A stretch of DNA of 64,000 nt from Desulfatiglandales bacterium (GTDB lineage Bacteria > Desulfobacterota > DSM-4660 > Desulfatiglandales > Desulfatiglandaceae): assembly GCA_963662465.1 (NCBI GenBank), contig OY759599.1, positions 3,744,001-3,808,000 on the forward strand. Reading direction: 5' to 3'. The position numbers were made by a program. How positions within the stretch are numbered: position 1 is the stretch's first letter; each line of letters opens with the position of its first letter. Below are positions 30,405 through 54,400 of the stretch, piece by piece.

Positions 30405-33400
30405 TTATTTGTTAGTTTGCGTATTGATATTCCATGACATCATAATTTCCGTCCTGTTTAATCGTGTATATCTTTGCCGATTTCTGACTGCTTTCCTGGG
30501 AAGAATGCTTCATTTTGTAGTAGGCAATATCGTTGCTGGTAATGCCATCGATCCCCACAAACTCCCTTTCAAGTTCTTTAAGACTGTCAAACCCGCTTCC
30601 AAAAAACGGCAGCTTGGAAAAATAGGGCTGTGGGCTTTTTATGTCCGCCACAACGGCAAAATGGCTTGGAAACATCGGATCCCCTATGACCAGAAGAAAT
30701 TTATCCGCGGATTTTGCAATCTGATAGTCAGGCGGAATTTTTTCTTTTTGGATCTCAAAAAAATATTCCCGCAAAATGGATCCAGCCTCCACAAAATCTA
30801 CGTCATCTGCGGATAAAAGATCCGAGCACGAAAAAAAACCGAATACATACAATGCAATGCTGAAACTGCTGATCTGTTCATAAATGGGTTGTTCTCTATC
30901 GCACATTGTTGTGATTTCTTTCATTCGTTCTTTAATAAGAAGCCCGTTCCGATTCATGATAATCCCCCTTCTCTCCAAATGGATCATGCTAATGCCTTCT
31001 GTACAGGAGACTGTTGCAATAGCCTTTGTACGAGTAACGCGTCTTAACAAGAAGCAGAGCAAGAGACATGCCAAATTCAAAGAAAAAGAATGTGCGATGT
31101 AACACATTTAAATTATGCAATAATTTGCAATCTTATCGTAACTGCGCCGATAACGGTGGTAAAAATTCAATCTGCTTATTTTGTGTCAGGACTTGAATTT
31201 TCCGGGATGAGCTCTGTAGAAAAGGATATACGGAGGGATTCGACAATATGTTCAAAATTTGCACAGGATGGTGGAAATACAGCACGGAATCGAAAAAAGG
31301 GGGGTTCATCAGGTTTTCTGTAACAAAAAACAAGAAGTTCATTGACAAAAAAACTTAGCCCATTTTCGGGTCTGGGACGTTTTGATAGCGCTTAATCTTT
31401 CGAAGCAGTGTTTTGTAGTCAATCCCAAGCCTTCTGGCGGTTTCGCTTTTGTTGCCGCCCGTCTGGATCAGGGTTTGCCGGATGGTTTTTTGTTCGATAT
31501 CGTCTCGGATGCGGCCGATGGTTATTTTGAGGGGTTCTTTGCCCTCATAGGGTTCAGAAAACGGGGAGGGTTTTTCTATTGGCTCATCTGCCGGATGAGT
31601 ATTGAGGGTCAGGTGAACCGGTTCGATGGCCATGTTCTCTTCGCACAACAGCACGCTTTGGCGGATAGCGTTTCGCAGTTCCCGAACGTTTCCCGGCCAA
31701 GCATAGGCTGATAATGCCGCCAATGCTGCTTTGGACAGCCCGGCACATTTTTTGTTCAGCTCCTTTTCCACTTCAGTTTTAAATTTTGTGGCCAGATAGG
31801 GGATATCTTCGGTCCTTTCCCTGAGAGCGGGAATTTTGATGGTAAATTCATTGAGGCGAAAATAGAGGTCCGATCGAAACTTGCCGCTTGCCACATCCTT
31901 TTCGAGGGACTGGTTGGTCGCCGCCACGATGCGACTTGAAATGGGCGTCGGTTCTCCACCTCCCAGGCGTTGGATCTTTCGTTCCTGAATCGTTCGAAGC
32001 AGCGTCTGTTGTACCGAATAGGGGAGATTTCCCACTTCATCCAGGAACAGTGTTCCGCCTTGCGCCAATTCGAAATGTCCGATTTTGTCCGTATGGGCGC
32101 CGGTAAACGCTCCCTTCCGATAGCCGAAAAGTTCACTTTCAATGAGGGTTTCGGGAATGGCCCCGCAATCCACTGCCACGAAAGGCCCGTCCTTGACCCT
32201 GCTCAGATCATGAATGGCGCCGGCCACAAGTTCTTTTCCCGTACCGCTCTCCCCCTCGATCAGGACCGTGAACGCGGTTGGCGCGACCTTTTTTACGTGC
32301 CGAACCAGGGTTTTGACGGCATCGCTTTGCCCCATGCGCTCGTAGAGGGGGGGGCGATCGTTCAGCATGTGTTTTAAGTGTGCTACTTCCTGCTCAAGGC
32401 CCTGTTTTTCCAGTGCCCTTTGAATGGCAAACATGAAATTGTCCGGGTTAACCGGTTTGGTAACGTAGTCGTAGACGCCCATTTTCATGGCTTTGACGGC
32501 GATTTTGATCTCTGCGTATCCCGTTATAATGACGATGGGCGCTTTCGGCGACAGGCGTTTGATTTCTTCGGCAATTTGAAGACCGTCCCGTCCCGGCATG
32601 CGGTAATCCAGCAGGACCAGATCCGGGCGATCATTTTTAAAGCGTGAAAGGGCTTCTTCTCCGTCCCGGGCCTGAAGGACCTCGTAATCCGTTTTTTCCA
32701 GCATTTGGGTTGTCAGCCAGAGGAAATCCTCATTGTCATCCACCAGCAGTATTTTCTTTTTGGGTGTACTCATCCCTGTCCCCCGCAAAACACGGCATCG
32801 CTTATTTCTTCTAATTGCGCCACGCCACGAACCGGATTGGGAAAAAGGGGCGCCCGCACGATGGTCCTCTGGTGAAAACGGGATTGGATTTCCCGAATAC
32901 AGTCTTGCTGCTCGTACCGTTTGAGGGTACAGAACCCGCAATCCGTCGGGGGCAGCACCATATTGACGATAATATGTTCGCACGGTACGTTGGCTTTTAG
33001 AAGGGCGTTCATGAGGCGTTCCAACTCCAGAAAGCCCATCCGTTCGGGAATGGTGACGCTTACGAACCGGGTCTTTTGCGTATCGATCAGCGCTTCCTGA
33101 ATTTGCCGCACATTTTTTGAAAGTGCCAGCGCTTTCTCCGCGGCCCCCGTTAAACGGACCACCCCCTTATATTTCATCAGGAGTCTGAAAAAGACCCGAA
33201 GCCATTGTCTCACCAGGTGGGGCAGTTCCAGAAAACGCAGGAGATGGCCCGTGGGCGAGGTGTCCAAAACAAAAATGTCAAATTGATTTTCCTTTCGTAA
33301 ATCCATCATCTTATCAAGACTCATGATTTCATCCAGTCCGGGCGGGGCCATCTCGAGGATTTCGGTCATCACCTGGCGATCGAATTGGATATCCGTCCCT

Positions 33401-51400: not shown

Positions 51401-54400
51401 TATGAATGGCTCCGGCGCGGATTGGCAAAGGTTTAAATTTACGGTTTACGGTTGCCGATTTCAGCAAAGGCGAAAAATCTTTCGCCGCGACGTCAACCCG
51501 CTACCGCCGTCTGCCATTGACTTCGAACTCTTTCCCTCACCAGATCAAGGTCTTCCAGAAGCCGGCCAACCTGATTGTCTCGAACCCCTTGCTGAACTTT
51601 GAGGGATTTGAGCATGAGCTTAAAGTCTTTGAGTTTTACGGTTTCTCCCTTAAGCAGTAGTTTCTTGAGAGCTGTTTTCAACTCTTCCTGCTCCATCTGA
51701 ATGCGCTTCAGCGCCTGAACGATTCCGGTTTCCCGTTCTTTCTGCCTTTTCAGAATATCTTCCTTGATGATTTCCATATCGTCGAGATTTGGCCGGCCTC
51801 CGGAGACAATAACGTTCCGCAATCGACCGATCATCTCTTTTTCTTCCTTATGGAAATTTTGAAAAACCCTTTCCGCTTCCTCTTCCCTGGCGTTTCGTCT
51901 GGCCGTGAGCCCACTCATCATCCGGTCAAAATCCTTCTTTCGAAGACTTTCCGATTTGGCGAGGTTATCTTTCAATTGAACCATCATCTCTTGCAGTTCC
52001 GTATGAAAGCTTTCCAGGAAATGATAAGCCTGTTCCATGAGATTGTTTACAGTTTTGACGCGCATTTCATAGGAATCAATGATGCTGTTCGCCAGGTTTC
52101 TTAAGTTTTCTTCGGTTACCACTTTTTTTACCTCGTTAAACAAAAAAAACCGCAAATAACTCAGACAATTTGGTCTACCCATACCAACAACGGGAAGGGA
52201 GCATTGTCAGACTTATTTACGGTCTTCCAGTGGTCTGATGGAGATTTCAGATATGCCCAAGACTTTCCTGATGAAATCCTTTGCGTCGGGAGAGGGGTTC
52301 ATGGAACGCCTCTCGGATCTCAAGGATATCCGGCAATCTCCCTTCGATTCTAAATATGCTGCTTAAGAATTACGCGGTCGCGGTAAGCCCCACGGCCTCG
52401 GCATATTTGAGGTATGTCTCAACGCCGGCAACCACGGCCCTTGCTTCGATGGCCAGCAGTTCAATTCCCACGAGAGAAACCCTTGCCCATGCGTCGACGA
52501 CCACGCCCTTATCCAAAATTCTGTCGACTACTTCAGCCAAACTTGCGGATGCCATTGATTTTTCCATTGCCATGATGAATCTCCTTTCATAAATGAGTCA
52601 GGTATGTTGCGTTACGCCCGTTGTGGTACATTAATTGCTTACTATGCGGTCGCGGTAAGTCCCACGGCCTCGGCATATTTGAGGTATGTCTCAACGCCGG
52701 CAACCACGGCCCTTGCTTCGATGGCCAGCAGTTCAATTCCCACGAGAGAAACCCTTGCCCATGCGTCGACGACCACGCCCTTATCTAAAATTCTGTCGAC
52801 CACTTCAGCCAAACTTGCGGATGCCATTGATTTTTCCATTGCCATGATGAATCTCCTTTCTCATTTTGGGTTTTTCAGTTAAACACGATTGTTTTCTAAG
52901 GATGCATTTGTCGTGCCACAACGAGTGTTATTCTTATCTGACCGGATTTGCTATGATATTTTTTGATCCATTTAAATATGTGAGGACTTGGGGCATGAAA
53001 GGGTATGGCATTGAACACCCAATTGGGGCTTGGGTGCCATAAGCTACGTTGAAAGCCGCTTTGACTTTTCTATCCCACCCGCAACAAAATGCCTGAGGGA
53101 AGGGATTCCCCGAAGATCCGGCTTTCCTCCTGGCTTGCGACGGGGATCACCTCCTCAAGAACATGAATGTAAGGCGCCGCCCACTCGTGGGGCAAAAGCC
53201 AATCGATAATCTCTTTGATGACCACAGGCGTCACATCCCGTTTTCGGTCTCCGGTAAGTCGAGCCATCTGGGACAGGGCCATACCCACGGGTCGGGGGTT
53301 TTTCCAGTTTTCAGATAGAATGGTTTGGGTCCAGGCCTCAATCACTTGGGGTGAAATGACCCGGTCAATGGGGCCGTAAAGAGGCTCCCGGGCGCCGATC
53401 CTGGACAGGGCCCACCAATGCTGGGGCCGGGCTTTCTTGGGGGACAGGCCTTTGAGCAGCTGTTTTCCCCTGGCGACCTTGTCTTCTTCTGAAATCCGTT
53501 CCAGATTGGCCAGGGTCATCCACATTTCCATTTCTTCCTGGGGGGCAAGATTGGGTTTTTTGCCGCCTTTTTGGGGTTTAACCAGGGATGAAATGCTTAA
53601 GAATACCTGGCGCTGCTGGCTCGCGGAAAGGCCGCCGGCAATTCGACGCCACAACACCCACCATTCCGACCTGACCTGAACATTTTTGACATGGTTGGGC
53701 CCATCACGGAAAAATTTCCACAATTTTTCGATGCGGTGTTCATCCAGCGCATCCCCGAATCCGGGTCTCAGACAAAATCCGATCAAATTGAGCCAACGGC
53801 TTTCGTGTTCAATGCTGAGGTTTCGGGATGAAACCAGGCTCATGAGCTCATCGGCTGCCTGGCGAATAAATCCGAGAGGCCATTTTTCCTTGGGCGTATG
53901 AACCGTTTCCGTGATGCCCTTGATGAGGCTTGCCGGCTGGTTTTTGGCGGCCTCACCCGAAAAGGTCTCCCTGATCAATTGTATGGCCTGGTTCACAACG
54001 GATTCTTCAAAAACCTCCCTATCCGAAACTGGAACAGGCTGCTCCGCGGTACGCAGTTGAAATTGGAAACGCCATCGGTGAGGACTTTTTATGGACTGAC
54101 ACCACAGGGCCAGGGTGCCCATTTCGGTATAATGGGCTTCCATTTTTACGGGAATGGAAACACCCCCCTTGGCTTTTTTTCCGAATTTGATCACCGTGTG
54201 AAGGGGGGGAAGGGTTGTCAAGGTATCATCCACATGAATGACCTTGCCTACCGTGTCTCCCGAGCGAAAACTGGAGCTGTACAGGTGAAAGCGTACCGGC
54301 TGGTTGGCCAGGACGGAAAACTGTTTGTCATGAAGTTCGTTTCGGGTTCCCTCGGGCATGCCCCGTTCCACCAGGCAGACGGCCATGGTGGGATCCCCAT

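Follow-up and report, generated by a model that had tools for sequence, protein, structure and literature searches.

We propose that, in a gas-vesicle (gvp) gene cluster of a Desulfatiglandales bacterium, a GvpF protein fused to a J-domain (GvpF-J) and a specialised DnaK from the same operon act as an HscB/HscA-like adaptor-chaperone pair for shell proteins, a reading that we hold with somewhat better than even confidence. HscB-HscA-IscU combines a class C J-protein with a dedicated Hsp70 for Fe-S cluster transfer. As in that system, a client-binding domain and a J-domain are joined in one protein, and an Hsp70 paralogue is encoded together with the client; the J-domain of the fusion differs from that of HscB in being C-terminal, and the client domain is GvpF. 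GvpF-J would be a client-specific (class C) J-domain adaptor, of which the GvpF domain, by comparison with other GvpFs, would bind a hydrophobic protein of the shell family (GvpA, or one of the J/M type) or else an intermediate of assembly, and the HPD-bearing J-domain would, judging from its residues, trigger ATP hydrolysis by Hsp70. The Hsp70 partner would be the specialised DnaK of the operon if present, and the host DnaK elsewhere; its cycle may hold the client soluble and pass it to the growing shell, as HscB-HscA do with IscU. We infer these binding and activity steps from the architecture, conservation, clades, co-occurrence and residue changes that were observed.

GvpF has been reported as the primary, chaperone-like partner of GvpA (PMC9501494, PMC11445434, PMC10903477). 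GvpA2 in excess is toxic and forms aggregates, and this aggregation restricts the heterologous production of vesicles as ultrasound reporters (PMC12848028). A folding kit taken from nature may therefore be of practical use. No paper found by literature search describes the present system. Its gene content suggests that dedicated ATP-driven chaperones serve many little-studied microbes in handling a very sticky shell protein. With it, the client-specialised Hsp70s of bacteria, HscA and HscC among them, would gain one more lineage, and a bacterial Cdc48 that has no proteasome would acquire a role. Such a kit is not generally required, since the well-studied gvp clusters of B. megaterium, Anabaena and Serratia yield vesicles in E. 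coli, and the Serratia gene lists, as far as excerpted, name no J-protein, DnaK or Cdc48.

Architecture and conservation of the GvpF-J fusion

The window analysed is a stretch of 64,000 nucleotides, and all features described here lie on its minus strand. The first-pass annotation had correctly placed the fusion (43932-44951), Cdc48 (44986-47118), DnaK (36074-37786) and ArsA (32770-34800). The limits it gave for the cluster (32770-52845) were too narrow, as the cluster continues to 63621, adding a second Hsp20 and a TIKI-like protein; gvpA, J/M, F/L, G, K, O and N are all present.

The fusion protein (339 aa) consists of a GvpF part at residues 8-245 (PF06386, E 6.7e-53, 180.7 bits against a cut-off of 23.6) and a J-domain at 263-314 (PF00226, E 1.6e-13, 51 bits against 27.8) with, as claimed earlier, an intact HPD at 288-290; it scores below the equivalog cut-offs of cyanobacterial GvpF and GvpL. 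In the predicted model (pLDDT 91.8), helices 273-286 and 296-315 lie either side of the HPD, and a short C-terminal strand region follows the J-domain. The model resembles GvpF crystal structures (Foldseek E 2e-15 to 6L5D; TM 0.79 by target length) and solved J-domains (rmsd 1.2-1.8 over about 55 residues; 1.2 over 55 columns to the J-domain in 5NRO). Its GvpF part has the same fold as GvpF/GvpL of Anabaena (6L5D) and Microcystis (4QSG), which are chaperone-like GvpA binders by report. Such solved or studied proteins are about 250 residues long and lack a J-domain, whereas the fusion is an extra paralogue with the J-domain and strand region added. The operon encodes four GvpF/L paralogues, the other three (all PF06386) being a 250-aa protein (47146-47898), a 250-aa GvpF adjoining gvpG (43160-43912) and a 334-aa GvpL-like protein with an N-terminal extension (39961-40965). 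A read contig from run X2, possibly the source sample, spans 42843-45528 with 0 differences, and the fusion is therefore no assembly artefact.

The HPD hardly varies, even among relatives of about 30% identity; it is kept in 120/120 close relatives, in 143 of the 150 representatives taken at 50% identity and in 80 of 81 aligned locus J-domains. The fusion had been described as rare, which holds per genome (nine full-length copies in 400 sampled phylum genomes, this genome not counted) and fails overall, as there are at least 143 fusion-bearing clusters at 50% identity, and the 80 loci compared carry labels from 19 phyla. Among the basic positions that contact DnaK (R22, K26, R27, K48 and K51 in E. 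coli, whose numbering is used), position 22 is K/R in 77/81 J-domains and position 26 is R/K in 51/81. Position 48 is K in only 2/81 and E in 61/81, and its bridge partner in DnaK, D477, is kept in 6 of 32 operon DnaKs, so that the bridge is gone on both sides. Since K48 is missing also where no operon DnaK was found, the lost bridge does not support co-evolution of the pair.

A dedicated DnaK branch

The operon DnaK (570 aa) has intact catalytic residues and lacks both the 76-101 insert and the acidic tail. It scores above one DnaK cut-off (NF001413, 702 versus 648) and below another (TIGR02350, 687 versus 823). All 31 operon DnaKs, together with a single copy at a contig end, group on a branch of their own, separate from the host DnaKs (SH-aLRT 95; 100 after removal of six long or divergent rows). 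The 31 rows labelled by gvp neighbours, and the members of the branch added later, all adjoin gvp-type genes or contig ends. This DnaK goes with the fusion: in a sample spread evenly over the phylum, it occurs in seven of nine fusion genomes and in none of 16 fusion-less gvp genomes. It is not found at every locus, as four of four earlier cases had implied: it is present in 27 of the 38 fusion loci with at least 9 kb downstream, and a fusion without dedicated DnaK occurs in 2/9 sample genomes and 7/30 hand-picked genomes.

Residues were numbered after PMC8215388. K70, E171, D194 and T199, as well as the J-docking residues R167, E206, Q378, L391 and P419, are kept in every operon row covering these positions. 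The window copy departs from canonical DnaK in the arch at 404 (E in place of M/L; own E377), the V436 pocket (M; own M409), a degenerate loop 282-295 and the acidic tail. In a comparison of 32 operon rows with 30 host rows, V436M is found in 23/32 operon and 0/30 host DnaKs, although the operon rows share kinship and the change is confined to a few subclades. Position 404 is polar or charged in 31/32 operon DnaKs and L in 28/30 host copies; N537 is found in 0/32 against 30/30, and the acidic tail motif in 0/28 against 29/30. The entropy of loop 282-295, the GrpE loop, is 2.48 bits in operon against 0.35 in host DnaKs. By sequence, the operon DnaKs retain their catalytic residues and most of those for J-docking, and carry HscA-like specialist changes.

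The traits of HscA include a Met pocket, loss of the N537-M404 bond, a short tail and loss of the GrpE motif (review, PMC8215388), and the operon DnaKs share the Met at 436, the short tail, altered arch and lid contacts and a degenerate GrpE motif. They differ from HscA in a polar rather than bulky arch, in A429 and in mostly keeping the cleft salt bridges. Identity with HscA was rejected, because the window copy falls below the HscA cut-off (TIGR01991, 555 versus 709), A429 is found in 31/32 rows (F in HscA), the cleft salt bridges of the window copy are kept and the context is gvp, not isc. The likeness is best read as convergence, in trees of operon and host DnaKs that do not include HscA itself. 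Both nucleotide-cleft salt bridges (K55, R56, E264, E267) being kept, GrpE independence is not supported for the window copy. No grpE was found in the 80 fusion loci, and the host genome has grpE-dnaK and dnaJ elsewhere.

The first-pass annotation had suggested that the fusion recruits both Hsp70 and an unfoldase. The first half has support from sequence, in that the near-invariant HPD, the J fold, the dedicated DnaK branch and the co-occurrence with that DnaK argue for a fusion that would recruit Hsp70.

Cdc48 and a possible role in vesicle recycling

The second half of that suggestion has no such support. Since 15 of 16 fusion-less gvp genomes have Cdc48, its recruitment by the fusion is unsupported, and a plasmid gvp cluster of Octadecabacter arcticus has the fusion with neither Cdc48 nor DnaK in the cluster. 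Cdc48 lies directly upstream of the fusion in 48 of the 75 loci reaching that far, not always, as three earlier cases of three had indicated. Strain 238 of O. arcticus is cultured and gas-vacuolate, and offers a ready test system.

The window Cdc48 is a VAT-type double-ring AAA+ ATPase (TIGR01243, 970 bits versus a cut-off of 803) and, as claimed earlier, the sole CDC48_N-bearing protein of the genome. In common with archaeal VAT/Cdc48 and p97, it has an N-domain (CDC48_N, CDC48_2), two AAA+ rings, both Walker A motifs and aromatic pore loops; its closest solved structure is VAT (E 4e-232). It differs from VAT in its place in an organelle operon of a bacterium, and in a tree with five archaeal paralogues the 65 gvp copies group together on a single branch (SH-aLRT 98). 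A C-terminal HbYX was found in 0/70 gvp copies, and two of the five archaeal paralogues match the pattern; no 20S alpha/beta pair was found in the genome, which has one PF00227 match of 184 aa, HslV-sized. The proteasome-activating Cdc48/VAT class was rejected on these grounds. We propose that Cdc48 and Hsp20 form a second module, which is more widespread among gvp operons than the fusion and does not depend on it. Its probable task is to unfold or pull out Gvp proteins that have aggregated or stalled, with no 20S proteasome involved.

The main rival reading, possible but unlikely in our view, is a recycling line in which GvpF-J would tag shells that have collapsed or are in surplus, much as auxilin does with clathrin cages. 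Subunits would then be loosened by DnaK, threaded out by Cdc48 and held by Hsp20 and ArsA, with possible cleavage by the TIKI-like protein. Clathrin uncoating by auxilin and Hsc70 relies on a J-domain that is tethered to a domain binding the lattice and so brings Hsp70 to the protein cage. Auxilin is named in PMC10410713. Its homology to GvpF-J is limited to the J-domain, and a role of GvpF-J in disassembly would be by analogy. The strong tie of Cdc48 to gvp clusters (CDC48_N in 24/30 gvp genomes versus 17/370 others in the 400-genome phylum sample), its separate branch, the missing HbYX with a single HslV-sized PF00227 match, and a TIKI-like protein with invariant His, Glu, Asp and Arg at 35/80 loci would fit this reading. 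However, reports describe an early and transient binding of GvpF to monomeric GvpA, the fusion gene lies among assembly genes with intergenic gaps of 19-45 bases, and Cdc48 and fusion are separable in both directions. An ATP-driven disassembly or recycling machine in the full sense, with an auxilin-Hsc70-like J-adaptor and Hsp70, a proteasome-independent Cdc48 extracting GvpA and a TIKI-fold enzyme finishing the process, spread by transfer over some 19 phyla, is unlikely; if true, gas vesicles would have their first dedicated pathway of organelle turnover. A 2024 review lists the maintenance of GvpA solubility and active vesicle degradation as open questions (PMC10903477), and both could be studied in this operon type, in which the ATPases are named and purifiable and the HPD provides a switch of one residue.

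Regulators and remaining cluster genes

The 243-aa TIKI-like protein (61801-62532; profile match E 1.2e-78) shows weak PF01963 matches in 15/32 family members. The model of a relative aligns best with ChaN (Z 9.1, rmsd 4.2, 160 aligned) and further TIKI members (Z 5.0-7.7), so that a TIKI/TraB-like fold is probable. The invariant H11, E108, R150, D151 and H176 are present in the window copy. The family has two invariant His. After the second strand, at the presumed position of the Glu in a His-Glu pair, stands an invariant Gln-Asp; the protein may therefore not be a hydrolase, which again speaks against recycling. Upstream of it lies a 362-aa protein (from the first start codon) with HTH_3 and a C-terminal Hsp20 domain (62533-63621; PF01381, PF00011; gvp-locus Hsp20-like profile, E 3.7e-33).

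A further, improbable reading is that the DnaK-J pair acts on regulators and accessory factors (kinase, response regulators, helix-turn-helix/Hsp20 proteins, GvpN), coupling vesicle gene expression to free shell protein, and not on shell folding. The GvrC-like response-regulator gene (37773-38399; weak GYF_2 match) overlaps the dnaK start by 14 bases and follows a sensor-less, GvrB-like histidine kinase (38409-39218; Pfam). In many Desulfobacterota loci dnaK follows such a kinase-regulator pair, Hsp20 domains are fused to HTH domains, and the substrate pocket is unlike that of a generalist DnaK. In other phyla, however, dnaK directly follows a gvpM/J-like gene with no kinase or regulator, and the J-domain is joined to an assembly factor, not to a regulator.

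A reading in which the chaperones of the cluster are mere passengers or serve general stress, with the J-domain as a relic, is very improbable and largely refuted by conservation. The surface loops of the operon DnaK are relaxed, its conservation is lower overall (entropy 0.98 versus 0.68 bits in host DnaKs) and an unrelated Hsp70-like module also lies within the cluster, but the HPD is near-invariant, the operon DnaKs and Cdc48s form own branches across phyla, that of the DnaKs lying beside gvp-type genes or at contig ends, and the host keeps its own chaperone genes. The Hsp70-like module (53070-58532; Pfam), between the regulators and gvpA, comprises DUF2760 and two atypical Hsp70-like genes (609 aa; 933 aa with DUF3731); a piece of it is found in only one of the 80 loci, that of the closest relative (L005), and it is probably a separate module.

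The assembly genes comprise gvpN (48253-49167; AAA+, TIGR02640 above cut-off), gvpG (42875-43114; PF05120), gvpO (42502-42768; PF05800), gvpK (40984-41295; PF05121), a gvpJ-like gene with a zinc-ribbon-like tail (41355-41729; PF00741, best NCBIfam GvpJ, below cut-off) and a 240-aa gvpM/J-like gene with extra C-terminal domains (39158-39880; PF00741, best NCBIfam GvpM, below cut-off). A 104-aa coiled-coil protein after gvpN (47918-48232) is named GvpV-like from its position, and a 516-aa helical-repeat protein (49700-51250) GvpC-like from position and repeats. A stand-alone DnaJ-type CXXCXGXG zinc finger (122 aa, 49255-49623; PF00684, E 5e-11) is 43% identical over 103 aa to a 258-aa protein (41713-42489; PF00684) with this finger at its C-terminus and a putative helix-turn-helix-like N-terminal part; one or other form occurs in 48/80 loci. 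A GvpH-like 308-aa protein (35098-36024) has a C-terminal Hsp20-like domain (NF041800, E 8e-9, below cut-off); its first ESM Atlas match is an HSP20-named cluster (score 0.97; Pfam HSP20 on 11% of members). ArsA is a tandem, GvpZ-like ArsA/Get3 ATPase (PF02374 twice; TIGR00345).

The Serratia sp. cluster is similar in its several GvpF paralogues, GvpH/Hsp20, two-domain ArsA and regulators, and differs in that its excerpted description names no J fusion, DnaK or Cdc48. We take Serratia GvrA to be a sigma-54 activator and GvpZ to be ArsA. An NtrC-type sigma-54 activator in GvrA-like position (58549-59985; Pfam) follows a receiver-PAS-histidine kinase hybrid (60080-61630; Pfam), and in three loci (L002-L004) kinase and activator lie directly upstream of gvpA. 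A second NtrC-type activator (31355-32983; Pfam) probably starts further downstream. gvpA itself (67 aa) is present in two copies with identical proteins (52642-52845, PF00741, NF006874 above cut-off; 52370-52573), and is followed here, as in many loci, by a conserved 229-aa protein (51493-52182) with no Pfam or NCBIfam match at E<=0.001. About 60 bases upstream of gvpA, a GG-N10-GC element (52903-52918) was read from the sequence, which we take from the consensus to be a sigma-54-like promoter element; a strict pattern was matched in 3/26 loci, against 0.26 expected.

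Organization of the gas-vesicle cluster

A dense gas-vesicle (gvp) operon occupies the minus strand of the window from 52845 to 31355. It starts with two gvpA genes, followed by genes for a 229-aa protein, a GvpC-like protein, a zinc-finger protein, GvpN and a 104-aa protein. The middle part comprises gvpF, cdc48, a gene for a GvpF/L protein with a C-terminal J-domain (the GvpF-J fusion, 43932-44951, minus strand), another gvpF, gvpG and gvpO; then come a second zinc-finger protein gene, gvpJ, gvpK, gvpL and gvpM/J. The 3' part contains genes for a kinase and a regulator, dnaK (36074-37786, minus strand, encoding 570 residues, here called the operon DnaK), an Hsp20-like gene, arsA and a gene for an NtrC-type activator. 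Intergenic gaps from gvpN to gvpG are only 19-45 bases. The combination of fusion, Cdc48, DnaK and ArsA in one gvp operon, as described in the first-pass annotation, is real and visible in the gene order; the bounds proposed there (32770 to 52845) are too narrow, as the cluster includes more genes upstream of gvpA. This upstream part encodes an HTH-Hsp20 protein (62533-63621), an unnamed 243-aa protein (61801-62532), a hybrid kinase and an NtrC-type activator. Between these upstream regulators and gvpA lie a DUF2760 gene and two atypical Hsp70-like genes, one with DUF3731 (53070-58532). Among 80 loci this unit was found only in the closest relative, and therefore it is probably an inserted module.

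A read contig from run X2 spans the fusion with 0 differences, and X2 may be the source sample. The RNA library X1 yielded short contigs from relatives along the operon, which cannot show transcription. Scanning 30500-50000 for sigma-70 promoters and terminators gave matches at or below chance.

Architecture and distribution of the GvpF-J fusion

The window fusion consists of a GvpF domain (PF06386, residues 8-245) and a J-domain (PF00226, residues 263-314), the latter with the intact HPD motif noted earlier, at residues 288-290. Its structural model (mean pLDDT 91.8) matches two crystal structures of GvpF (E 2e-15 to 4e-14); the J part superposes on J-domains with an rmsd of 1.2-1.8 over about 55 residues. 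The HPD motif occurs in all 120 relatives listed among 328 matches, and at 50% identity it is present in 143 of the best 150 representatives; of the seven lacking it, several look truncated or frameshifted. A predicted complex of the GvpF domain (1-254) with GvpA scored 0.27 against a mark of 0.32, a value which carries no weight either way on binding.

Of 506 genome stretches, the top 80, all MAG- or single-cell-type records, bear labels of 19 phyla, including one archaeal label on a short contig; the labels may be wrong. In an even sample of 400 genomes of the phylum, scored for five candidates per genome and with 38 weak matches outside the listing, the matches listed include a full-length fusion in at least nine genomes, a cut or shorter form in at least three, and GvpF/L without fusion in at least 18. 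The fusion had been called rare, with no full-length copy in 60 sampled phylum genomes; it is indeed found in few genomes, but its HPD-bearing form is conserved widely. A protein search for cultured hosts returned only MAG-type names among its matches. Searching plasmids identified one cultured host, the gas-vacuolate strain Octadecabacter arcticus 238, whose plasmid pOA238_160 encodes a 360-aa GvpF-J protein with HPD (L196:14791-15873), annotated as GvpL/GvpF only. The cluster contains Hsp20, and no annotated DnaK or Cdc48 was found within the 30.8 kb of plasmid.

The operon DnaK and the Cdc48 module

Besides the operon copy, the genome encodes two other full-length DnaKs, and the gene for one of these follows grpE. 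A quick tree of 69 Hsp70s placed all 31 gvp-adjacent DnaKs and one contig-end copy on a single branch (SH-aLRT 95) that excludes the housekeeping DnaKs from these hosts; support rises to 100 once six long or divergent rows are removed. All trees were quick or FastTree constructions with SH-type support only.

We compared 32 operon with 30 host DnaK rows (E. coli numbering), taking residue roles from passages of PMC8215388; since the rows are akin to each other, the counts overstate independence. No variation was seen at the catalytic positions or at the J-docking residues R167, E206, Q378, L391 and P419. Met stands at position 436 in 23 of 32 operon DnaKs versus Val in 30 of 30 host DnaKs, and position 404 is Glu, Gln or Arg in 31 of 32 versus Leu in 28 of 30. 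N537 is lost from all operon DnaKs and Y/H544 from most, the loop 282-295 is degenerate (2.48 bits versus 0.35 in host rows), and the acidic tail motif occurs in 0 of 28 operon DnaKs as opposed to 29 of 30 host DnaKs. Judged from these alignments, the predicted client site of the operon DnaK is different from that of the host DnaK. The changes resemble traits of the specialist HscA, as far as these are described in passages of PMC8215388, although by profile scores the operon DnaK is not HscA itself, and the full parallel is weakened by the window DnaK retaining both cleft salt bridges. K48 of the J-domain (present in 2 of 81) and its DnaK partner D477 (6 of 32) are both mostly lost. A charge swap between them was rejected and no co-evolution is claimed, because K48 is missing even in genomes where the operon DnaK was not found. 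No GrpE was found among the unassigned genes of the gvp loci.

In the even phylum sample, operon-type DnaK is present in seven of nine genomes with a full-length fusion versus none of 16 with a fusion-less gvp operon of other layout, where the assignment of ten single DnaK matches and of three of 13 matches in multi-copy genomes relied on their length and identity. Contig ends cut the operons of two more fusion-less genomes, one of which has an operon DnaK; among 30 hand-picked fusion genomes, the gene was not seen in seven. CDC48_N is found in 24 of 30 gvp genomes versus 17 of 370 others, and in 15 of the 16 fusion-less gvp genomes, where cdc48 precedes GvpF/L genes and often follows an Hsp20 gene. 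The reported position of cdc48 directly upstream of the fusion holds for 48 of 75 loci and not for all; an Hsp20-like gene is located just upstream of cdc48 in 28 of 43 loci. DnaK tracks the fusion and Cdc48 does not; the kit therefore divides into two modules that can occur apart, one of fusion and DnaK and one of Hsp20 and Cdc48.

Cdc48 is unique in the genome, as previously noted, being its one CDC48_N protein. In a tree with five paralogues from a single archaeal-labelled genome as outgroup, and without the 17 non-gvp bacterial Cdc48s, all 65 gvp copies group on one branch. None of 70 gvp Cdc48 copies ends in HbYX, and the genome's one PF00227 match is HslV-sized.

Proposed role and additional genes of gvp clusters

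Passages of PMC9501494, PMC11445434 and PMC10903477 describe GvpF as the first partner of GvpA, acting transiently and like a chaperone, and GvpA2 without chaperone aggregates according to part of PMC12848028. On balance we favour the reading, drawn from sequence comparison, that the fusion is a client-specific adaptor: its GvpF domain would capture GvpA and its J-domain would couple this capture to an Hsp70 cycle, in which the operon DnaK, adapted to a narrow range of clients, would work. Cdc48, Hsp20 and ArsA might clear or hold failed products. The main rival, recycling of the shells, appears rather unlikely to us, and action on regulators more doubtful still. That the chaperone genes are passengers is highly improbable; the kit is real and conserved. 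The fusion and DnaK are a putative dedicated J-protein/Hsp70 pair for a protein organelle, with the Cdc48 module separate from it.

A description in print is apparently lacking. By title or abstract start, no paper listed in searches on gas vesicles with Cdc48, DnaJ or DnaK describes the system; Barriot et al. 2020, which a passage of PMC8215388 cites as surveying the domains of prokaryotic J-proteins, may list the architecture. ArsA and Hsp20 in gvp clusters were already reported in passages of PMC2963123, whose main text has no mention of DnaJ. The main texts of PMC9501494 and PMC7376271 mention neither DnaK nor Cdc48, that of PMC11445434 does not mention DnaK, and gas vesicles are absent from the main texts of PMC8215388 and PMC10410713. 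The single Cdc48 mention in PMC6107691 concerns a column contaminant.

The 243-aa protein represents an unnamed TIKI/TraB-like family tied to gvp clusters, found in 35 of 80 fusion loci and in some fusion-less operons; no family name came from a PDB sequence search or from the ESM Atlas. Weak TraB/PrgY/GumN matches were obtained for 15 of 32 members, and a relative's model (pLDDT 87.8) resembles ChaN (Z 9.1) and other TIKI-superfamily proteins (Z 5.0-7.7). Two His, two Glu, one Arg and two Asp are invariant. Gln-Asp follows the second strand, where, judging from a passage of PMC6254334, a catalytic Glu would be expected. At most, the protein is a candidate peptidase or binding protein.

Two DnaJ-type CXXCXGXG zinc-finger proteins without J-domain are encoded at 49255-49623 and 41713-42489. 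Of 80 loci, 48 carry at least one of the two forms, and these are present in fusion-less operons too; with the fusion they look like DnaJ in pieces. TPR-repeat genes, which encode possible co-chaperone scaffolds, lie within the gvp clusters of L032 (L032:881-1621) and of about seven more loci. Divergent Hsp70 genes were also encountered: in L171:568 (genome G293) a cut fusion gene is directly followed by one for a 641-aa Hsp70 outside the operon-DnaK branch, and the window's own genome has two more (L083 and L086, G000:C1:7625563-7628745 and 6020782-6026845), each near a GrpE-like gene and one also with a small J-protein.

Volactin-family actin homologues (PF25216) lie inside bacterial-labelled gvp operons in seven of 80 loci, among them L033:10188-11216 and L042:152-1201; the two scanned match PF25216 with E ~1e-96, and the window's genome was found to have none. 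Some clusters (L006, L015, L023, L028, L046, L059, L070, L072 and others) have an additional gvpN that is more distant, with about 50-57% identity to that of the window. Finally, small genes of the four-helix 23S rRNA intervening-sequence/bAvd family are located at varying places between gvp genes (20 copies in 12 loci, for example L008:7999-8364).
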